12,836 bases of DNA from Bdellovibrionales bacterium (GCA_031370005.1 JANMPT010000011.1:1-12836), one strand, 5' to 3'. Positions 1,733 to 12,836 are shown, counted from the stretch's first letter. Notes: a model not told the origin generated them from the sequence alone. Made by a program: numbers and translations.

Positions 1733-2853
1733 TTCTTATCTCCTGAGAAAAGTGGAATACTAATGCCGATATTGGTACGAATATCTTTTCGCTGCTGATC
1801 AAAAATCGAAGTATTTTGCTTTAAATCCACATACTCAAACTCAGTAAAAAAGCTCAGTTCTTTTAGTCGCTGGGAAAGCTTCATCTGCAGGAGGTATTCC
1901 TGCCCTGGAAGAACATCGTAGGCACTAAAAGTCCCTCCCATTAGATATGAGCCACCTATTCCCGCTGTCAACTTCAAAGCACGCACTTGAGCCAAGTCCA
2001 AGGTCAAGATCAGTTTTGCATAAGGCAAAGGACGTGTTTCAAGACTTGCAGACCCAATCTGATAAGATGGAATAAAAATTTCCTCATTTGTACCGACCTC
2101 AAAACGAAACGAGGATTTTTCATTGAGTTTATAATGCACTCCAAATCCCATCATTGATGTTGATTGCTGACTATTATAAAGAAGTCCGTGCCCTGCATCC
2201 TGATAGGAAATTGAAGTATAATCCCAGTCAATAAATGACTCGAGCGACTCTGACCAAATTTGCTCCCAAGAGAGCTTCACAGCAACCAGCGGTTTTGACA
2301 AAGCGACTGCTTGGGCGCCACTAGTGGAGATCTTAGAATCGATTCTTGAATAACCAGAACCTAAAGAAAATATGAGACGACTTTGCTCACTCTCATTATT
2401 CTCTTTCTGCAGAATCACCGGGAGCTCCGGAGCTTGAGGCTTTGCTATGGCTGGTTCCAAAACTTCTTGCGCAATAGCTCGAGTTTGTCTTATCACCGTT
2501 TTTGGCAACACCACTGCAAGGCTTTCTTTTTTGATTTCATCTTTAAATTGAATTTCGTTTTCAGCTGTAACTAAGATACGGCCCTGAGATTTTGCCTTTT
2601 CTACGATTTCCTGAGAAAAATAAATTATTTGCCCCTGCTTCACTTTATTGATGTCAAAAACTTGACCAGCATTTAAATTTTGTACTAATTTAAGATAACC
2701 CCGTCTGCCATAGATAGGCGCAAGACTTGCTAAATACAGGACTTGAGAAACAAATTCATCTTTTTTCATACGATAGAAATATTGCCGCTCAGCTGCCAAC
2801 GAACTGAAAGTAAGACAGAATGTTATGCAAAAAACGATACACTGACGGCCCAT
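1729..2853 (-). CDS. Secreted protein with LysM-like N-terminal domain and C-terminal outer-membrane beta-barrel-like domain
   Basis: Signal peptide ending SSLA. YRMKKDEFVSQVL...IYG...LN...INKVKQGQIIYF resembles LysM. Pro/Glu-rich linker, then about 220 aa of alternating amphipathic beta-strand pattern ending TNIGISIPLF. Confidence 0.65.
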   Translation of the reverse strand: MGRQCIVFCITFCLTFSSLAAERQYFYRMKKDEFVSQVLYLASLAPIYGRRGYLKLVQNLNAGQVFDINKVKQGQIIYFSQEIVEKAKSQGRILVTAENEIQFKDEIKKESLAVVLPKTVIRQTRAIAQEVLEPAIAKPQAPELPVILQKENNESEQSRLIFSLGSGYSRIDSKISTSGAQAVALSKPLVAVKLSWEQIWSESLESFIDWDYTSISYQDAGHGLLYNSQQSTSMMGFGVHYKLNEKSSFRFEVGTNEEIFIPSYQIGSASLETRPLPYAKLILTLDLAQVRALKLTAGIGGSYLMGGTFSAYDVLPGQEYLLQMKLSQRLKELSFFTEFEYVDLKQNTSIFDQQRKDIRTNIGISIPLFSGDKK

Positions 2854-2862
2854 ACCTACTAC

Positions 2863-2890
2863 TTATCGGTCGATTTTAGGATTTTCTTGA
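2863..2890 (-). promoter_or_regulatory. Putative sigma28 (FliA) promoter for the barrel-lipoprotein-fibre operon
   Basis: Minus strand reads TCAAG-N15-ACCGATAA, 9 nt before the ATG at 2853. Resembles the sigma28 consensus TAAA-N15-GCCGATAA. Confidence 0.6.
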
Positions 2891-3281
2891 CAGAAACTTA
2901 ATAACAATACCTTTGTCCAAATTGGCCAAAAAACATGCACGCCAAGCCACCCTGTTCACCATATTTTACCTCTTAAACTGCACTGCCCCAAGTTTATACC
3001 AAATACGACAGACCTGCCATGGTAGCGCCACATCACGTGGGCATCGTAAAGAACAGCGACCAGTCTTTACAGGAAAGTGGATCCACCTAGTGCAAAATCA
3101 GATTACGTAAAAGGAGATTGTTCCTGAAGACGTGGCGCAAAATATCCCTTTCCGAAAAACGGAGAACCGCCAAGAGAATATGCTGAAGTGAGAATTCCTC
3201 AGTTTTAACTTTATATAAATATAATAAACATTATTTGTTTAATGATACTCTTATCGAATGCGCCAGATTTGAAAAACTAAA

Positions 3282-3308
3282 TTTAGAAATTTACAATCAC
3301 GCCGATAA
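3282..3308 (+). promoter_or_regulatory. Putative sigma28 promoter for the response regulator
   Basis: TTTA-N15-GCCGATAA with a perfect -10 box at 3301-3308 and a weaker -35. Confidence 0.5.
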
Positions 3309-3357
3309 GCTTCATTCAAGGGGCTTCACAAGCTCCAAGAAAGTAATGCGAGGATCA

Positions 3358-3909
3358 ATGCATAAACCAAGATTATTAATTGCAGACGACGAGGTTGAGA
3401 TTCGAAACTCAATTCGTTTTTTTACTAAAAAACACTTTGAAATACTCGAAGCAAGTAATGGAATGGAAGCACTTAAAATTCTCAAATGCAACCGAATAGA
3501 TCTATTGCTTTCTGATTATAATATGCCATGTATGAATGGCTTCGAGCTTCTCAAGTCGATAATCGAGCTGAATATGCGTGTCCCCGTAATTTTGCTCACA
3601 GGAAGAGGATCAGTTGATCTTTGCCGATCAACTTGGGCCCTTGGAGTATTTAAATACTTAGAAAAGCCTTTTAATACCACCGAACTAGTTCAGTGCCTGG
3701 AAGGAGCTATGGATTTCAGGGCCGCATTCTCAGAAGTCAGAAGAATCCGTCGTATTTCAAAATTAATCTATGAAGAACCTAACCTTATGTTCGCTTCAGA
3801 AGACTATCGAAAATTTCATGAATTATGTTTAGAGCGTGGAGTTTCTGTATCCACTGCGATAAGCGAGCTGATCGCGAACAGCTTAAAGAGTCGTGGCAAT
3901 ACTCCCTAG
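3358..3909 (+). CDS. Orphan response regulator (receiver domain plus short C-terminal putative ribbon-helix-helix domain)
   Basis: LLIADDE, phospho-acceptor LLLSDYNMP, LLTG and EKPF motifs are intact. Start moved from TTG 3235 to ATG 3358 (ATG 3346 is the alternative) because receiver similarity begins there and GAGG precedes it. Confidence 0.88.
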   Translation: MHKPRLLIADDEVEIRNSIRFFTKKHFEILEASNGMEALKILKCNRIDLLLSDYNMPCMNGFELLKSIIELNMRVPVILLTGRGSVDLCRSTWALGVFKYLEKPFNTTELVQCLEGAMDFRAAFSEVRRIRRISKLIYEEPNLMFASEDYRKFHELCLERGVSVSTAISELIANSLKSRGNTP

Positions 3910-3954
3910 TTTGCTTGGAACAGTCTTCCACAAAAAGACTCTTTAAAGTCATTT

Positions 3955-5220
3955 CTAAACTTTAACGCTCAACCCATCTTTGAGGGCCATTTTCTGTGCA
4001 CGATAAGCTGGAATAAACCCAGTAAGAATTCCTCCGATAAGCGTAAAGCCTAGATATATAAATTCAATTTTTCCGAGGGCCCTTCCCTCTAAGTAAAAAC
4101 CAAATTCGATCTCCAACCATGGTCTTAAAAAAGTCGTTGCTACAAGTGCGACCGAGGTTCCCAACAGAATACCTGCAAGGGTCAGCAGGGCGGATTCAAA
4201 AACAAGCAACGCTAAAATTTTATTAGTACTTGCTCCTAAGGCTCTCAAAATGGCCATTTCACGACGGCGTTCATTCAGGCTTGTCGTCAGTGCAATCAGC
4301 ATTGCCATAAAGCCCACAGCTACCACCATCCATGAGATAGCCTTCAATACTTGCTCCACATAGGAAAGCCCATGCCAGAGCTCACTCAATGTCACGCCTG
4401 GAATGATTGCGAGCAGGGGCTCGTCTTTATAGTTATTGATCTCACGTTGCAGGCTTAGTGTTTCGATTCTAGATTTTGCTCGCACAAAAAAAGCCGTGAT
4501 TTGATCAATCTTGATATCTTCCTTGTGGATCTTATCAGGACTGATGGCTTTATCTGCTGTTGGGGCCGAGCCATCCTTCCAATCTATGTGCATTGCCTCG
4601 ACTCCCTCAAGGCTCACATATAGAGACTGGTCCAAGGCCGTACCTGTAGGCTTCATGATTCCAACAATGGTGAATGGCTTATCATCATGCTTTTGAATGC
4701 CTTCACCGTGAGTCACCCCGTGGGCAATGACAATTTTATCTCCCAAATGGTATTTCAATTTGCGCGCTACATCAGCGCCAATCACAACATCCCAAAGACC
4801 GCTCAATTTATTGCCTTCGGATAATTCTACACTTCTGTCTCCGCGAAAACGGTAATGCTCAAAAAAATCATTGGTCGTTCCCACCACACGAAAACCATGA
4901 TGGCCATCACCAAGGGAGTAAGGGATCGTCCAAGCAATTGCCGGATAATTTTTAATTTCTTGATAGGTTTTGTAGGAAATATTGTGGGTCGCGTTTCCCA
5001 TATTAAAAACCGTGTACAGAATCAACTGAGTGGGACCACTCCTCGCGCCGACAATCAAGTCTGTTTGACTGATGGTTTGAGCAAAGCCTTCTTCTGCCGC
5101 GCGTTTGGCTCGCTCAACAGAAAGCAAAAGTGTCACGCTAAGGGCAATTGAAATCACGGTCAGGATTGAGGCTAGGAATCTGTTTTTAAGGGATTTTAGA
5201 GCAAGGTTTAAAAAAACCAT
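3955..5220 (-). CDS. ABC transporter permease, MacB/FtsX family (ZrgC-like)
   Basis: N-terminal TM helix, large periplasmic domain with His-rich HGVTHGEGIQKHDD, ERRREMAILRALGA motif and three C-terminal TM helices. Confidence 0.92.
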   Translation of the reverse strand: MVFLNLALKSLKNRFLASILTVISIALSVTLLLSVERAKRAAEEGFAQTISQTDLIVGARSGPTQLILYTVFNMGNATHNISYKTYQEIKNYPAIAWTIPYSLGDGHHGFRVVGTTNDFFEHYRFRGDRSVELSEGNKLSGLWDVVIGADVARKLKYHLGDKIVIAHGVTHGEGIQKHDDKPFTIVGIMKPTGTALDQSLYVSLEGVEAMHIDWKDGSAPTADKAISPDKIHKEDIKIDQITAFFVRAKSRIETLSLQREINNYKDEPLLAIIPGVTLSELWHGLSYVEQVLKAISWMVVAVGFMAMLIALTTSLNERRREMAILRALGASTNKILALLVFESALLTLAGILLGTSVALVATTFLRPWLEIEFGFYLEGRALGKIEFIYLGFTLIGGILTGFIPAYRAQKMALKDGLSVKV

Positions 5221-5221
5221 T

Positions 5222-5914
5222 TTAGACTCCCTTCCCGAGTAGATTTATCGAATCTAAGGAGATCGAGCGTGAAAACAAATGTTGAATTGTGCGATCATGA
5301 CTGACAAACAGCACCGTTGTTCCAAATTGTTCACAGAGCTCAAACATTAGCTCAAGAAAACGTTCACGATGATCCATGTCCAAAGATGAGGTGGGTTCAT
5401 CTGCCAGGATAAATTCCGGACGACCAAGTAGTGCTCTTGCAACAGCAACCCTTTGTTGCTGCCCCACACTGAGTTCCGTCACATTCTTTTCAAGCAAGGT
5501 CACAATACCCAAACGAGTGCAGAGATGCCTTACTGCCGAATGTGTGTCTTCTCCCTTTAAGCGGTTCCGACGACTATGGTTAAGGTGAATTGGCAATTCG
5601 ATATTTTCTTGAACACTTAAATAGGGAATAAGATTAAAACTTTGGAAAATATACCCCAGATGTTCGGCTCGAAAGTGATCACGATCCCTTTCCGACATTT
5701 TTGAAAGATCATGACCCAAAATACTCACTTCACCCTGTTCTACTTTTAAAATCCCGGCAAGCACCTCTAGAAGAGTGGTTTTGCCTGAGCCACTAGGTCC
5801 ATAAAGAAAAACCTTTTCACCCTTATTGATTCTGAATTCTGGGATATGCAAAGTATCTTGGGTAGAGTTTGTGTAGCGGTACTTGAGTTTCTTTACTTCA
5901 ATAAGCATAGACAT
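5222..5914 (-). CDS. ABC transporter ATP-binding protein, LolD/MacB-like (ZrgB-like)
   Basis: Walker A GPSGSGKTT, Q-loop GYIFQSFNL, signature LSVGQQQR, Walker B ILADEPT, H-switch VSHD. Confidence 0.95.
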   Translation of the reverse strand: MSMLIEVKKLKYRYTNSTQDTLHIPEFRINKGEKVFLYGPSGSGKTTLLEVLAGILKVEQGEVSILGHDLSKMSERDRDHFRAEHLGYIFQSFNLIPYLSVQENIELPIHLNHSRRNRLKGEDTHSAVRHLCTRLGIVTLLEKNVTELSVGQQQRVAVARALLGRPEFILADEPTSSLDMDHRERFLELMFELCEQFGTTVLFVSHDRTIQHLFSRSISLDSINLLGKGV

Positions 5915-5924
5915 GAAGGATTAC

Positions 5925-6377
5925 CTATCTATAAGGTTCGACGTTTTCACCGATAAGCTCAAAAGAAGCCTCTCCGTACATTGATTTTTTTGTTACAAGA
6001 TTAAGTGTGCCATAAACCCAGATAGGTCCGAAGGCGACTTCGGCTCCGGAGCGCATTTTCACGTAGACCATTTGATTGGGTGGAGGGGCCGGAACGTGAA
6101 TACAGGCTTGCGGACTTGGCACTAGTAAAAACTCAGTCACAGCTTTCTGGCTGTCTTCTAGGGGAACCATAAAGCCTGGAATCTTCACTTGATGGCCATT
6201 TAAAGCCTCTAGCTCCGAACTGGACTTTCCATTAACATAGTCCATTTGTCCAAGTAATCGCCAGTCCACCTCAACACCACTACCCGTCATCCCGCTATCG
6301 GCAAATTTGTGATAAAGCAAAGCTCCCATCACTACAGCAAGCACCAAAAACCCAACACCAACCAGCATTCTTTTCAT
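5925..6377 (-). CDS. DUF3299 family membrane-anchored OB-fold protein (ZrgD-like)
   Basis: N-terminal TM helix and VKIPGFMVPLE...EFLLVP...ACIHVPAPPPNQMVYV...PIWVYGTL motifs. Lies in an operon with the ABC pair. Confidence 0.88.
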   Translation of the reverse strand: MKRMLVGVGFLVLAVVMGALLYHKFADSGMTGSGVEVDWRLLGQMDYVNGKSSSELEALNGHQVKIPGFMVPLEDSQKAVTEFLLVPSPQACIHVPAPPPNQMVYVKMRSGAEVAFGPIWVYGTLNLVTKKSMYGEASFELIGENVEPYR

Positions 6378-6383
6378 TCCAAG

Positions 6384-6465
6384 AGGGTACCAGGTCGCTT
6401 TTCCGGATCAACTCAAACTAAATCAATCCATCGCGTTGCGTCCACGAAAAGCGACCTGGTACCCT
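6384..6465. repeat. Perfect 20-bp inverted repeat with 42-nt spacer (REP doublet/REPIN-like)
   Basis: AGGGTACCAGGTCGCTTTTC (6384-6403) and its exact reverse complement GAAAAGCGACCTGGTACCCT (6446-6465). Each arm is itself an imperfect palindrome. Confidence 0.85.
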
Positions 6466-7905: not shown

Positions 7906-8661
7906 TTATTTCGTCTCAGGCCTCATGCTGTATGCACTTAAAATGCCTTGATCGCGCAACCATTGAGCGGCCATGGCTGACCTTCTGCCCATGCTACAAC
8001 AAAGAACGAATTTTTTATCTACGCGCCAAAATTCTCTACTCCACTCGCCGGACATAATATCTTGATATGAAATATGAACAGCATTGGCAACGTCAACACC
8101 AAACAGTGGCTCGTGCTCTCTTTCCGCTTTGGATCGCACATCAATAAGGATACAATCACTGAGCGCATGAACTTGATCTGCCGTTAAATATAAACTCTCG
8201 TTTTTCGTTTGCCCTTGAATCCTATTTTTTTGAGCACAAAAACAGTTAGGATTCTGCTCTAAAGAAATGGACCTAAGCTTGGAATTGAAAAAATCAAAAA
8301 ACAAAACTTTTCCTTTTTGATCACTCAAGTTTCGACTTTGCCCTGCCCGAATAAGAATTATTTTTAAAACTTCAGCAGCCTGCCATGAACCAACGATTCC
8401 GACAAAAGCACCTAAAATCCCGCTTAGACTGCAATTCCCGACATCCGCAAACATCCCATGAGGATAAAAACAACGCAAACACGGGCCACCTTCACCCACA
8501 ACCATCAAGTTTGCTTCAAAACCTGTAGCTGACGCCGAAATTAAAACTTTTCTTGCTCGCAGGCAAACATCATTGAGCAGGTATTTCGATACAAAATTAT
8601 CAGTGCAATCAAGAATAATGTCATAATTTTCCAAAACACAATTTACATTTTCTGAACTCAG
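7906..8661 (-). pseudogene. moeB: 5'-truncated MoeB/ThiF adenylyltransferase with C-terminal rhodanese domain
   Basis: YDIILDCTDNF, PCLRCFYP, CSLSGILG...QAAEVLK and rhodanese LIDVRS...CCSMGRRS are present. In-frame similarity (LSSENVNCVLENYD) extends to 8661, then TAA at 8662-8664. The N-terminal GxGxxG/SNLxRQ nucleotide-binding part is absent and only 50 nt separate it from the next gene. Confidence 0.8.
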
Positions 8662-8686
8662 TTACATTTCGGCTCCGAGGGACTTC

Positions 8687-8714
8687 AAGGGAAAAAGAGT
8701 AAAAGGGACAAGAG
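8687..8714 (-). repeat. Pyrimidine-rich imperfect direct repeat immediately after the stop codon (candidate IMH/3' homing region)
   Basis: CTCTTGTCCCTT-TTA-CTCTTTTTCCCTT, with 26 of 28 nt pyrimidine. The repeat is seen directly; the IMH role is inference. Confidence 0.5.
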
Positions 8715-8849
8715 CTACTGGGCAGTCCTCACAAGGCGGAAGCCCACGTAGGAGTAACGATTACCAGGCCCCCAGATGCCACGGCCACCGGAGCGCAGGT
8801 AGGAAGCATCGTTGCCCCAGCTGCCGCCACGCATAACGCGGCTGGAGCC
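8715..8849 (-). other. Candidate DGR variable repeat (VR)
   Basis: Encodes GSSRVMRGGSWGNDASYLRSGGRGIWGPGNRYSYVGFRLVRTAQ*. Hand count gives 88/135 G+C and 16/135 A, and none of 45 codons ends in A. Most putative variable positions are NNC/NNT codons, as expected from AAC/AAT template codons. Confidence 0.75.
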
Positions 8850-11800
8850 CGTATTAGGACCTTGCGGATCAGTTCCACCAGGCAATGCACTTTGATACCA
8901 ATCATGGGTCCATTCCCACACGTTTCCATGCAAGTCGAAGAATTCCTTACCACCGATTACAAGCGGCTTCTTTTGCGCAACAGGATGAGTCTGGTTACCA
9001 GAATTTCCACTAAACCAACCGTAGTCACCAAGTTGGGACTCTTGGCTTCCGAAGTGGTAGACATCGTTTAATTGACCACGGCCCCTGATAACAAATTCCC
9101 ATTCAGCTTCTGTCGGAAGACGATAAACATCGCCCTTTTTATGACCCGGATTTAAATCCGCGAGCGTCGGTTCTCCTGCCTGAGAAAGCTCATTCAGGCC
9201 TTGGATCCATGTTTGGATGTCTTCGTAGGAAACCTGCTCCACAGGCCTTGTATCGCCCTTAAAGTTCGATGGATCTACGTTAATCTTGTACTTCGCGCCA
9301 AACTTTGCGTTTGCGAGGTCTGCCACCTTCTTCCAGATCACTTGGGTGGTTGGAGTCGCCATCATATCAAACGGTTTAGTGAGCGTGACATCGATCTGCT
9401 TTCCGACTTCGCCCATTTTAAATTTATCGGGTTCAACTCGGTGTAAGATCGCGCGATTTCCATCGATGACAGATTCTTTAATTTTCTGTTCTTGTTCTTT
9501 TCGTCTGCGAGCCTCTTCCTCTTTGGAGCGGTCATCTTGCTTGGTTTCAGTTTGCTTTTTACTTTGGAGGACTAAAATTTCCTGCTTCATCTTTTCGATC
9601 AGCTCAGCACGAGTCATAATCTTGTATTTTTCCAAGTATTCTACGAGGGCTTGCTCTTTCTTTTTAAAATCAGAGGTTAGAGCCGTGAGCTCAATCGAGC
9701 TTGTACCCTTTGATTTCGCAATATCAAGGCTGAGTCGTAAGCCCGACAGATCCTTGACTGCTTGATTGATCGATTTCTGGAGTTCAGGTGTTAAATTAGC
9801 TTTTCCAGGTGCGGGCAGACCTGCAACTTGGTTGTGAGCTTTGTCGCTAACAAACAAACTTGGAAAAAGGTCGGGATATTTCGTGATCTCCTTTTTATAC
9901 TCCTGCATAAACTCACCAATAGAAGAGTTTAAAACTTGGCTATAGTCTTTAGCCTCATCAATCATCATTTCTAGATGAAATTTCACTCTGCTGTCTACGA
10001 CTCCTGAACCAATGAGTCTTTCGATGACTTCCGACTGGTTGCTAAATTGTAGAACTCCGTCTTGACCATAAGAGGGCACTATTTTTTGCGGCGCCCAATA
10101 GCCAAGACCTTCAAAGAAAAGCCCTAAATCTTTCATCTCGATTGTGGTTCTTAAATTTTTAAATTCGACACCACTCATCAACTGATGAACGATAAACCTA
10201 GCTTTGAGTTGGTCAAAAAGTTTAATGACCGTTCGATCCGAAGCGCTGCCCGCAGCAGAAACGTAGTAATCCGGGAACTCGCGAACATCCATTTTATGCG
10301 CTCGTCTTGTTTCTTCTTCTTTCTTAACTCTTAAGGACAGGAATTTTTCATGAACTTTGGCAAGCATTTCCTTTAAAGCGGGGTTTTCAAACTCAACCTG
10401 TTTCACTAAAGGTTCAAGCTCGTGAATAGCAAGTAAGCCTTTCCAGTTGGGGGAAATCCCTTTTTCTAAATTAACTAGAAATTGAGTCAGGGCTTCCTCA
10501 CTAGATATTTTATTTGAGACATAAACTTTATTGACCGCACGGTCCATCACCGCTTCGCCCGTAGTTCGATCTTCATTATAAGAATCTAAAAATTCACTCG
10601 GCATTTTATTTGAAGTTAAAATGGCCGATCTTAAAGCCGTTTTGATCACTTGGTTTCCGGCGAAAACTTCACGCTCATTCAGAATAGAAAGAAGTGCCGT
10701 AATTGTTTGCGGATTGGCCTTATCAACCTCATCCAAAATTGCAAAAACGAATTTCTGATTTGCCAAGCTTGTTGACACTTCAATCTCTTCCTTACCTTCA
10801 TTAAGTTGTTTCTCAATCTTTGGAAAACCGATTAATACCCCTTCAGGCAAGAGTTTGTGGAATTGCAGAAGGAATCTTTCGAACTCCTGCGGTCTCTCGG
10901 TGCGAATGCGTTTTAATACCGCACGCAAGAATTTTTGATCTTTTCCGACAGACGCTATCGTGGTTCTAACAAAAGCATCCACTTGATCCGCATTTAACTT
11001 CTTAAGCTCTGATTTTAAAATGACTTCGGCCAGTGCGGTCTTCGCTCCTCCCGGAGGGCCAAAGACATAAAGATGATTATCCGATAATATTCCGGTCAAA
11101 TGTGCTTCAATCGAATGCTCAAGTTCCACAAAGCGCTGCTTCAGCGCTCGGACTTCATACCCCATCCATTCGTAATATTTAGATGCTCTTGCCTCAGCAG
11201 TTGCATTCAACATTTCTCTTCTAAATTGTCGTTTTTCTTTTTCGCTTCGAGCGGGCAACAATTTTTCTTGCGCAAGTTTTTGAGGAACTTGGTCTTTGTC
11301 AAAATGCTGATTAAGTACGTTGGCAAATTGCTCAAGGTCCTTCTTGATAGAATCAAGTTCGGCCCGTGTTCTTTCTTTAAGGGTCCCTTTTGCCAGAAGC
11401 TGATCAATTCCTTGATCAACCTCAAACTGAGGTTTTGCGAGATCAATTTTATTTGCATCAATGACAGTTTTAATTTTGGGTCCGAGAGCTGTAAAACCAC
11501 CGCTATCTACTGACCAATCTTGAAATTCTTGAGATTTCGATTTGAGAACCCATGCATTGTCTTTTTGAGTGAATATAAATTGGGTTTTACCGTTACCATC
11601 TTGAAGTAATAGTTGACCATCATAAGGGCTATATTGAACAGCCATCTCTGACGCTGTTCCATAAGGTGAGGTAACTCGAATGCCGTTTTGCACTTCTGTT
11701 ACAGGATAGGTTTTCATTCTTAAACCCGCTGGTCCCGCATACAGCGCACTCCGTGATAGTAGGCTTAAGTCTTTTCGTTGTGGAATCAGGCGCATTTGAT

Positions 11801-12836
11801 CAAAAGGAACGCCGTCCATAAGTTGTTTTGCGATCAGCGCTGATTTGAAAATCTGCACGAGGCGTCTGACAGAACGATTTGAAAATTGATTGGCCGGAAA
11901 ATATTCGCTCTCGGCTTCTCCGTATCTCACGGCGGTCCGTGACTGATCCGCCTTCTTGGTCACGTAACGATCAAACTCGCGGGCTATCGATACGATCTCT
12001 GCCATCATGTCATCAGGGATCTTAACCTTGGCGACCAAGACCTCCAGGTCTCTCAGTGGAAGGCTGATTTTTAATTTCTCAGGATTTTTCACCAGATCAT
12101 ACATGGCCACAGTTTCTTTGGGGCTCATCTGTTGATTTGGTATATGGATTTTAATTGCCATCCGATCAAGAAGGGCTTCGCCTGATGGACGGTCATTTAA
12201 GAAACCCTGAATAAATTCGCCAGTCGTTTTGTTGGATGTGAACACGCCGCTTGATAAAATACTGTCAACGACCTTAGCTCCTAAAAATGCTTTTCTTTCA
12301 TTCAGCACGGAAAGAAGTGCGTTCAGGACCGCCGGGTTTGATTTTTCCGCTTCATCGGCAATTAAGAATAAAAACCTATCACCAACAAGAGACGACTCTG
12401 TTTCGATCTCATACTTTCCGTCTTTCATCATTGATGAGAATTTCTGAAATCCAGAAATTTTTCCCTCAGATATCAATTTATGAAACTGAAGAACGAATAC
12501 TTTTTTATCTTTTTCTGGAATTGAGTTTAAAACCGATTGGAACATGAGTCGTGATAAAAAGGTTTTAGCTCCGCCGGGCTCACCATTAATCCAGACAAAT
12601 TCTTTAGCTAAAATTGCTGTCGTCAATGCTTCAATAACTTGACTTCGTCCATACACCTTTTGATCAATTTGTTTTAAGGCAGTAACCGATTCTGTCCAAG
12701 CTTCCGAAGGCGTCTTTATTTGAACCGAAGTTGCAACAACCCCTGCGTGACTGAATATTTCTGAGCACTTATTCGCAGCCGATGCGACCGGAGATTCAAG
12801 AATGAGTAGGGATAGGAAAGTCCCTACTAATAATAT
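8715..12836 (-). CDS. Secreted tandem RavA/MoxR-like AAA+ ATPase with coiled coil and C-terminal FGE-sulfatase (CLec-fold) domain; start lies just beyond the window edge
   Basis: Frame stays open upstream of GTG 12656 to base 12836 (ILLVGTFLSLLILESPVASA-ANKCSEIF). Walker A GEPGGAKT (12561-12584) and GPPGGAKT (11037-11060). Walker B IADEAEK and ILDEVDK, followed by LLSVLNER/LLSILNER, TSNK and EALLDR/EAVMDR. C-terminal domain has YRLPTEAEWEF, FDLHGNVWEW, RVMRGGSW and VGFRLV. Confidence 0.9.
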   Translation of the reverse strand: MLLVGTFLSLLILESPVASAANKCSEIFSHAGVVATSVQIKTPSEAWTESVTALKQIDQKVYGRSQVIEALTTAILAKEFVWINGEPGGAKTFLSRLMFQSVLNSIPEKDKKVFVLQFHKLISEGKISGFQKFSSMMKDGKYEIETESSLVGDRFLFLIADEAEKSNPAVLNALLSVLNERKAFLGAKVVDSILSSGVFTSNKTTGEFIQGFLNDRPSGEALLDRMAIKIHIPNQQMSPKETVAMYDLVKNPEKLKISLPLRDLEVLVAKVKIPDDMMAEIVSIAREFDRYVTKKADQSRTAVRYGEAESEYFPANQFSNRSVRRLVQIFKSALIAKQLMDGVPFDQMRLIPQRKDLSLLSRSALYAGPAGLRMKTYPVTEVQNGIRVTSPYGTASEMAVQYSPYDGQLLLQDGNGKTQFIFTQKDNAWVLKSKSQEFQDWSVDSGGFTALGPKIKTVIDANKIDLAKPQFEVDQGIDQLLAKGTLKERTRAELDSIKKDLEQFANVLNQHFDKDQVPQKLAQEKLLPARSEKEKRQFRREMLNATAEARASKYYEWMGYEVRALKQRFVELEHSIEAHLTGILSDNHLYVFGPPGGAKTALAEVILKSELKKLNADQVDAFVRTTIASVGKDQKFLRAVLKRIRTERPQEFERFLLQFHKLLPEGVLIGFPKIEKQLNEGKEEIEVSTSLANQKFVFAILDEVDKANPQTITALLSILNEREVFAGNQVIKTALRSAILTSNKMPSEFLDSYNEDRTTGEAVMDRAVNKVYVSNKISSEEALTQFLVNLEKGISPNWKGLLAIHELEPLVKQVEFENPALKEMLAKVHEKFLSLRVKKEEETRRAHKMDVREFPDYYVSAAGSASDRTVIKLFDQLKARFIVHQLMSGVEFKNLRTTIEMKDLGLFFEGLGYWAPQKIVPSYGQDGVLQFSNQSEVIERLIGSGVVDSRVKFHLEMMIDEAKDYSQVLNSSIGEFMQEYKKEITKYPDLFPSLFVSDKAHNQVAGLPAPGKANLTPELQKSINQAVKDLSGLRLSLDIAKSKGTSSIELTALTSDFKKKEQALVEYLEKYKIMTRAELIEKMKQEILVLQSKKQTETKQDDRSKEEEARRRKEQEQKIKESVIDGNRAILHRVEPDKFKMGEVGKQIDVTLTKPFDMMATPTTQVIWKKVADLANAKFGAKYKINVDPSNFKGDTRPVEQVSYEDIQTWIQGLNELSQAGEPTLADLNPGHKKGDVYRLPTEAEWEFVIRGRGQLNDVYHFGSQESQLGDYGWFSGNSGNQTHPVAQKKPLVIGGKEFFDLHGNVWEWTHDWYQSALPGGTDPQGPNTGSSRVMRGGSWGNDASYLRSGGRGIWGPGNRYSYVGFRLVRTAQ

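Follow-up and report, generated by a model that had tools for sequence, protein, structure and literature searches.

Domain architecture of the gene

The window analysed here, 12,836 bp of DNA from a Bdellovibrionales bacterium (GCA_031370005.1, JANMPT010000011.1), is an entire contig (C107) of a 3.21-Mb genome in 123 contigs, which by marker genes is 99.79% complete and 1.09% contaminated and whose smallest contig has 1504 bp. On the minus strand, a single open reading frame (ORF) covers the whole span from 8715 to 12836 and runs off the contig end. It encodes a tandem MoxR-type ATPase with a C-terminal lectin-fold head, in the following the MoxR-lectin protein, of which the window holds all but the first nine of about 1382 residues. 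This gene, the diversity-generating retroelement (DGR) that targets its family and the gene of a von Willebrand factor A (vWA) partner are the subject of this work. The parts of the gene are:

8715..12836, minus strand: gene of the predicted exported tandem-MoxR/lectin protein, 1373 codons and the stop codon TAG (8715-8717), with the first 9 codons missing at the contig end
12777..12836, minus strand: h- and c-region of a signal peptide with a cleavage-type site between ASA and A; the n-region MKKMRSTLH lies on contig C113
12750..12776, minus strand: mature N-terminal motif ANKCSEIFS with a cysteine invariant in the alignment; the same motif occurs in the vWA partner
11730..12677, minus strand: AAA+ module 1 of the bpMoxR type (Walker A 12561-12584, Walker B 12342-12365)
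11157..11729, minus strand: middle region of a beta-rich domain and helices, no family match
10086..11153, minus strand: AAA+ module 2, tandem duplicate of module 1 (Walker A 11037-11060, Walker B 10719-10742)
9471..9788, minus strand: charged three-helix stalk, residues 1017-1122, from the AlphaFold2 (AF2) model
8718..9446, minus strand: TvpA-like domain of the formylglycine-generating enzyme (FGE) / C-type-lectin fold, without cysteine (Pfam, AF2, Foldseek)
8725..8853, minus strand: variable region (VR) of a DGR, the last 129 nt of the gene, with hypervariable codons 1341-1363 at 8748-8816 and an end like the initiation of mutagenic homing site (IMH), GGCTTCCGCCTTGTGAGGAC, at 8725-8744

In Pfam, the protein matches bpMoxR (PF20030) in three stretches with E 7.2e-28 (97.5 bits against a cut-off of 27), AAA_5 in two stretches with E 6e-15 and FGE-sulfatase (PF03781) at residues 1149-1370 with E 2e-29. 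The two ATPase modules, residues ~54-369 and ~562-917, are 33% identical with E 9e-51 and therefore represent a tandem duplication. Walker A and Walker B are kept in both (GEPGGAKT/DE and GPPGGAKT/DE) and are invariant in an alignment of 33 sequences, i.e. the window protein and 32 homologues, from which P0013 (marked partial), P0022 and P0034 were left out. Judged by these motifs, both are catalytically intact modules of the bpMoxR type and evidently active. In the AF2 model of residues 25-560 (pLDDT 86.3) the nearest structures by Foldseek are RavA and the MoxR protein 2r44; RavA is the best solved relative of the ATPase part both by phmmer (E 1e-7) and among the top Foldseek hits. In the model of residues 1001-1373 (pLDDT 87.7), residues 1017-1122 form three long helices, and a domain of the FGE fold comes after them.

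An earlier description of this DNA from its letters alone, the sequence-only reading, had proposed just this succession of signal peptide, two AAA+ modules, stalk and FGE-fold head, and every element was recovered where it had been placed, including a coiled coil at about 9470-9790 that corresponds to the three helices at nt 9471-9788. Its label 'RavA-like' holds at the level of the MoxR clade and not beyond, since the RavA equivalog NF010054 (NCBIfam) stayed below its threshold with 67.2 bits against a cut-off of 681. It had also raised the concern that the ATPase and FGE parts could be an assembly chimera. A homologue search gave 70 hits, 33 of them full-length with 1353-1455 aa and 56-85% identity, and these 33 independent homologues carry PF20030 together with PF03781, which clears this concern. 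About 30 shorter homologues (~980-1090 aa) come without the lectin part.

The lectin head and its variable region

By sequence, the best solved relative of the head is the Treponema DGR protein TvpA (2y3c; phmmer E 3.8e-25, against ~4e-10 for true FGEs), which is also the best fold match of the AF2 model (Foldseek E 1.4e-17, TM 0.67 on the target). Formylglycine-generating enzymes such as SUMF1 require a catalytic cysteine pair. Because residues 1131-1373 contain no cysteine at all, the head is predicted to be a binding domain and not a formylglycine-generating enzyme.

We assign the last 129 nt of the gene (8725-8853), at the level of the family and the species, to the VR of a DGR, and several sequence properties support this assignment. 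Most of the window codons 1341-1363 have the form NNC, their third base being conserved, and scaffold residues that do not vary are interspersed between them; an IMH-like GTGAGGAC end is present at the 3' end of the region. Pairwise identity among the 13 sequences that are at least 78% identical to the window protein averages 0.91 and 0.89 over the two ATPase modules but falls to 0.75 over the lectin scaffold and to 0.54 over residues 1332-1366, i.e. the VR. In the VR of these close homologues, positions with an entropy above 2.3 bits are interleaved with invariant scaffold residues. K, E, Q, M and W, the residues out of reach of AAC mutagenesis, account for 50 of the 583 residues found at variable positions; in the scaffold their share is 25%.

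Variation of the same kind is found among metagenome contigs. In run X14, which comes from another study than X1, the probable source run, a 10,435-nt contig spans 8823-12836 with 49 differences in 4014 nt (a gene copy 98.8% identical to that of the window) and breaks off at the VR, with the sequence taken up again at 8748 by another contig. Between shared flanking contigs, two alternative 134-nt contigs cover 8719-8852 with 19 and 18 differences at depths of 2 and 3. This bubble lies exactly over the variable codons 1341-1363 (nt 8748-8816) and their k-mer flanks. The seven listed differences within the VR all fall on codon position 1 or 2 and are all to or from adenine on the coding strand, and the three listed just outside it are synonymous third positions, a reading of codon positions that covers the listed differences and not the 82 further ones. 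Coverage of the VR is incomplete in runs X2 and X15.

Templates and reverse transcriptases in relatives

Matches to the reverse transcriptase (RT) family RVT_1 were found in two of the five genomes that hold homologues. The RT in the genome of the homologue locus L010 was rejected as a DGR RT; it is of the group II intron type, with a C-terminus that is maturase-like by eye. In the genome G002 (= G071), a 317-aa RT is followed directly 3' by a template region (TR) on a separate 3.5-kb contig, with a small local FGE target beside the TR. This TR encodes GSNRVIRGGSWNNNAQNLRSGNRNNNGPGNRNNNVGFRLVS, and the VR of the full-length homologue of that genome (L011) mismatches it at 16 of its 33 adenines and at only 2 of 96 other bases, these two being the left boundary and the IMH. 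Four further TRs (in G082, G101, G037 and G019) encode the same AAC-rich template next to genes for RT, bAvd and HRDC proteins; the RT together with Avd and HRDC was found in G071, G082 and G037. The TRs of all five relatives align to window 8725-8853, and the best-matching one and the window VR disagree at 18 of 33 adenines and at 16 of the remaining 96 bases. In this family, the RT-TR cassette acts in trans from another locus. The proposal of the sequence-only reading that the C-terminus is a DGR target is borne out by the adenine-specific TR/VR pair of the relative, the VR identity of 0.54 and the two X14 alleles.

In a sample of 151 genomes of the bacterial family, 13 contain a strong DGR-RT match (E<=1e-35, our own cut), while no DGR-type RT was found in the six other searched genomes of the window's genus. 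Full-length fusions occur in G059, G036, G071, G104 and G094 of the family sample and in none of the six other genus members. The bacterial family is rich in FGE-domain paralogues whose C-termini are similar.

Complete DGR cassettes were observed at two loci, L059 (G082:C30) and L061 (G037:C27), in the order FtsH-like AAA/M41 protease, ankyrin-FGE target, HRDC, bAvd and RT; the ankyrin-FGE target has 1085 aa and is split in G037 into ORFs of 778 aa and 245 aa. A scan of metagenomes with a degenerate VR pattern gave a single hit, L045, where a different exported FGE protein of 509 aa is encoded at 2573-4102 and the VR scaffold bases are almost exactly those of the window; neither an RT nor a TR lies within 4 kb. 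This hit suggests that one type of TR may serve several unrelated targets in the lineage.

Sequences downstream of the variable region in this strain

Three features adjoin the 3' end of the gene:

8683..8714, minus strand: first part only of a conserved post-VR element; the GC hairpin that follows in relatives is absent
8659..8667, no strand: rearrangement breakpoint; X14 and X15 contigs diverge below 8659 into GC-hairpin-like sequence, and ThiF homology begins from 8667
7906..8667, minus strand: 5'-truncated ThiF/MoeB-rhodanese gene abutting the breakpoint, with a ThiF match at profile positions 97-236 only

Relatives have the conserved element after the stop codon and, next to it, a long hairpin with a GC core (fold z -8.5 in L011 and -5.1 in L043). 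In the window the first 32 nt of the element are kept and the hairpin was not found (fold z +0.68). As the X14 and X15 contigs diverge below 8659 and the ThiF gene is truncated from 8667, a rearrangement must have removed the hairpin together with whatever lay beyond and joined the flank to the truncated ThiF gene.

The genome contains only two other VR-related pieces, on contigs C76 and C5. The first (G000:C76:2825-3223, L002 1490-1894) is a fragment of an FGE gene at a contig end with 53% amino-acid identity, a VR-like C-terminus and NNC codons; it keeps the full post-VR hairpin element of the relatives and is followed downstream by a gene pair that, by eye, is putatively toxin-antitoxin-like. 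The second (G000:C5:760-800) is a decayed VR 3' end (GFRLVRTYP and stop) that retains a part of the post-VR element and lies in no long ORF.

Export signals and the vWA partner

Contig C113 shares 23 nt with the end of the window, and there an ATG and eight further codons (MKKMRSTLH) precede them. With the h- and c-region in the window, which reads ILLVGTFLSLLILESPVASA before the cleavage point and ANKC after it, the completed N-terminus is a classical signal peptide with a charged n-region, a hydrophobic core and cleavage between ASA and A. A hydrophobic core and an AXA-type site upstream of the invariant cysteine also characterize the homologues, 24 of 33 of which pass a crude rule, the failures being mostly marginal.

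Is the MoxR-lectin protein accompanied by a vWA protein, as other MoxR proteins are? Beside the first 17 codons of the MoxR-lectin gene, C113 carries a divergent gene for a protein of 1212 aa that likewise has a signal peptide and contains a vWA domain (PF00092, E 4.3e-07), 80.5% identical to the protein encoded divergently upstream of the homologue in L010. An exported vWA gene lies divergently upstream in six of eight related loci; of the other two, L009 comes without upstream DNA and L015 is arranged differently. With the divergent exported vWA gene on C113, the MoxR-lectin gene forms a MoxR-vWA couple whose diversified head is part of the ATPase subunit. The built-in target-recognition head of the sequence-only reading thus does not make a vWA adaptor superfluous, given the gene on C113 and those of the related loci. 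The Sec-type signals predict that the bulk of both the MoxR-lectin protein and its vWA partner is exported. A transglutaminase domain in the vWA partner, considered because of a C/H/D pattern seen by eye, was dismissed, as it was detected neither by Pfam at E<=5 nor by phmmer of residues 380-530 against the PDB. Pfam (E<=0.001) gave no VMAP-type third component, peptidase or TIR domain in the 12 flanking ORFs scanned in L010; the window's own upstream side ends at the contig end.

Both partners also share a motif around the cysteine that follows the cleavage site, and this motif co-varies across genomes in all six pairs (L008 and L010-L014) as well as in the window's own pair. NKCSEIFS is present in both own partners (in the partner at L058, G000:C113, ~6160-6185), RCEDFY in both partners of L013 and RCENIF in both partners of L011 and of L012, and the pair of L008 reads KCAELLSG and KCVDLLSG. 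The two partners use different synonymous codons for the motif (18 of 24 nt are identical in the own pair). Co-variation with differing synonymous codons is more suggestive of selection for the peptide than of gene conversion, and the shared motif hints at a common sorting step or a cysteine-mediated link between the MoxR-lectin protein and the vWA partner.

Right after codon 17 of the MoxR-lectin gene, an IS3-type insertion sequence (IS) element begins on C113 (L058 6433 to ~7900), with an OrfA of 104 aa and an OrfB of 324 aa. It is single-copy in the assembly, its far flank is unrelated to the MoxR-lectin gene and its inverted ends are unclear; for these three reasons a simple IS insertion model was rejected. 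The structure of C113 may represent a disrupted allele, a partial duplication or a mis-join. Contig C107 retains ~20 nt upstream of the IS junction of C113, and one contig of run X14 extends 6.4 kb beyond the window end, from which it follows that an uninterrupted form of the gene exists.

Discussion

How does this couple relate to systems already described? In the portions of the literature considered, DGR-diversified lectins are known from MoxR-vWA ternary systems, where the vWA component is fused to a diversified FGS domain and the TR sometimes lies elsewhere in the genome (Kaur et al. 2020, PMC7159879), and DGR targets adjoin MoxR ATPases (Dore et al. 2024, PMC10907252). The considered text of the latter also cites AAA-lectin fusions as the commonest target architecture in candidate phyla radiation (CPR) bacteria, and that of PMC5758913 describes Midasin-type AAA motifs in CPR targets as well as remote targets. 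The statement of the sequence-only reading that no system of this architecture has been described was, in view of PMC7159879 and PMC10907252, too strong. As far as the considered text of PMC7159879, PMC10907252 and PMC5758913 goes, a tandem MoxR-lectin fusion, export signals on both partners and an occurrence in Bdellovibrionota are described in none of the three, and no account of DGRs in Bdellovibrionota, or of exported MoxR proteins there, turned up in the portions of the literature considered.

The VMAP-type MoxR-vWA ternary systems, again as far as the considered text describes them, share with the present locus a MoxR and a vWA protein, an FGE/C-type-lectin domain with a C-terminal DGR VR and a TR that may be remote. 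They differ in that their lectin belongs either to the vWA component or to a separate target near MoxR, whereas here it is fused to a tandem-duplicated ATPase; here, both partners carry signal peptides and no VMAP, peptidase or TIR domain was found next to the relative L010. Their lineages are cyanobacteria or Chromatiales, in contrast to Bdellovibrionota. The CPR targets likewise place an AAA-type ATPase N-terminal to the diversified domain, a likeness by description and not by sequence; tandem MoxR modules, signal peptides, a vWA partner and Bdellovibrionota go unmentioned for them in the text considered. TvpA (2y3c) of Treponema denticola resembles the head in its FGE-type lectin fold, its C-terminal VR and remote targets served in trans, but this variable protein is small, of the lipoprotein type, and has no ATPase modules. 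RavA-ViaA of E. coli resembles the couple as a MoxR-clade AAA+ protein with a vWA partner, and RavA is the closest solved ATPase, yet it is cytoplasmic, has a single module and bears no lectin head.

Taking the evidence together, we are fairly confident that the gene encodes an exported tandem bpMoxR ATPase with a stalk and a DGR-diversified lectin head, paired with an exported vWA protein, and that the VR of this strain is probably frozen. Several observations weigh against this reading. The path through C113 enters the IS3-type element at codon 17, so that some members of the population may have a disrupted gene. The own assembly contains no RVT_1 match (0 by hidden Markov model (HMM)) and none by tblastn with the relative's RT, and no TR was found by blastn of the own genome with the VR or the relative's TR or by a repeat search in the window, absences that rest on a fragmented assembly of 123 contigs with none under 1.5 kb; blastn of the VR against four related loci also gave no TR. 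Only G071 among the five other fusion-bearing genomes (1/5) has a DGR-type RT and a TR motif. The X14 alleles are low-depth contigs (depth 2 and 3) from one study, and run X1 has a single contig over the VR and no alternative, a weak point in that contigs drop rare variants. Signal peptides were assessed by eye and by our own crude rule rather than by a trained predictor. Finally, no ATP supply is known for the periplasm, which leaves an exported and evidently active ATPase unexplained.

What do these observations mean for the retroelement in this strain? The mutagenic retrohoming of the head that the sequence-only reading had proposed is demonstrated for the family and the species and not for this strain, in whose assembly neither RT nor TR was found and where the post-VR hairpin is missing. 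Because of this missing cassette and the rearrangement that removed the hairpin, the VR is, on balance, probably a frozen orphan. A DGR that still acts on the gene, with a cassette left unassembled or unbinned (e.g. because it sits on a mobile element or on a contig that is short or broken by repeats) and a dispensable hairpin, is possible but clearly the less probable case. It would fit the absence of contigs below 1504 bp, the mere 3.5 kb of the contig that holds the relative's cassette, and the second VR-bearing FGE fragment on C76 with its full post-VR hairpin element. Trans-acting DGRs with remote targets are, moreover, documented in the considered text of PMC5758913 and PMC10907252. The HMM, tblastn and blastn searches, the lack of a DGR-type RT in six other genomes of the genus, the fold z of +0.68 after the VR against -8.5 and -5.1 in relatives and, weakly, the single VR contig of X1 argue in the opposite direction.

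That no retroelement is involved at all, and that ordinary diversifying selection or recombination among FGE-domain paralogues produced the variable C-terminus, we regard as very improbable, even though such paralogues are frequent and most fusion-bearing genomes are without an RT. The TR/VR mismatches in G071 are specific to adenine, the NNC codons keep their third base while residues unreachable by AAC mutagenesis are depleted, the X14 alleles are confined to the exact span of variable codons on a 98.8%-identical background, and the gene ends in an IMH-like sequence followed by the conserved post-VR element. Doubtful, if somewhat less so, is a cytoplasmic or membrane-tethered immune sensor of the kind of the MoxR-vWA 'ternary conflict systems', in which the hydrophobic N-terminus would be an anchor and the ATPase would stay with its ATP. 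Such a sensor would resolve the ATP problem, and the considered text of PMC7159879 and PMC10907252 describes DGR-diversified lectin domains as sensors or effectors of MoxR-vWA systems. The N-termini of most homologues and of the vWA partner, with positive charges before a hydrophobic core and then a conserved AXA-type site, speak against an anchor, as does the lack of a third VMAP-type component, peptidase or TIR domain in the 12 scanned flanking ORFs of L010.

The head would capture a changing ligand outside the cytoplasm, e.g. a surface or protein of prey, a competitor or a phage, and the MoxR ATPase ring and the vWA partner with its metal ion-dependent adhesion site (MIDAS) would then act on the bound ligand; three tandem chains would provide six ATPase modules. 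We further speculate, as a bolder and on present evidence unlikely extension, that a MoxR-vWA machine driven by ATP, its lectin head reprogrammed by a DGR in trans, is exported by members of Bdellovibrionota, a predatory phylum, for retargetable recognition and remodelling outside the producer's cytoplasm, e.g. in or on prey with ATP, the partners being coupled via the co-varying N-terminal cysteine motif. Among the extracellular effectors of bacterial predators, it would be the first that is hypermutable and powered by ATP, and action in prey would solve the ATP source of an exported ATPase. The labels 'unfoldase' and 'prey effector' of the sequence-only reading may in this sense apply to the MoxR-lectin protein.

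DGR targets are mostly passive binders, namely phage tail fibres, surface lipoproteins and proposed immune sensors. Here, in contrast, the diversified head is fused to a double AAA+ motor, motor and vWA partner bear export signals, and the lineage is one of predators. If the export is real, it raises the questions of where an exported ATPase obtains its ATP and what happens to the ligands caught by a hypervariable head. The family also offers natural 'on' and 'off' states, i.e. strains with RT-TR cassette and hairpin and a strain with a probably frozen VR, which would help to study the gain and loss of DGR targets.

Other genes of the window

The remainder of the window holds genes outside the system discussed above. 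Three exported proteins without a Pfam match are encoded on the minus strand at 1-1413 and 1439-2853; one of them is an ORF of at least 471 aa that runs off the contig end, with a Gly/Ser/Thr/Ala-rich, fibre-like low-complexity sequence. A response-regulator gene (3235-3909, plus strand) adjoins an operon-like block at 3955-6377 (minus strand) that comprises a MacB/FtsX-type ABC permease, an ABC ATPase and a DUF3299 protein. Between the DUF3299 and DUF308 genes lies a perfect 20-nt inverted repeat (6384-6403 and 6446-6465) with a 42-nt spacer.

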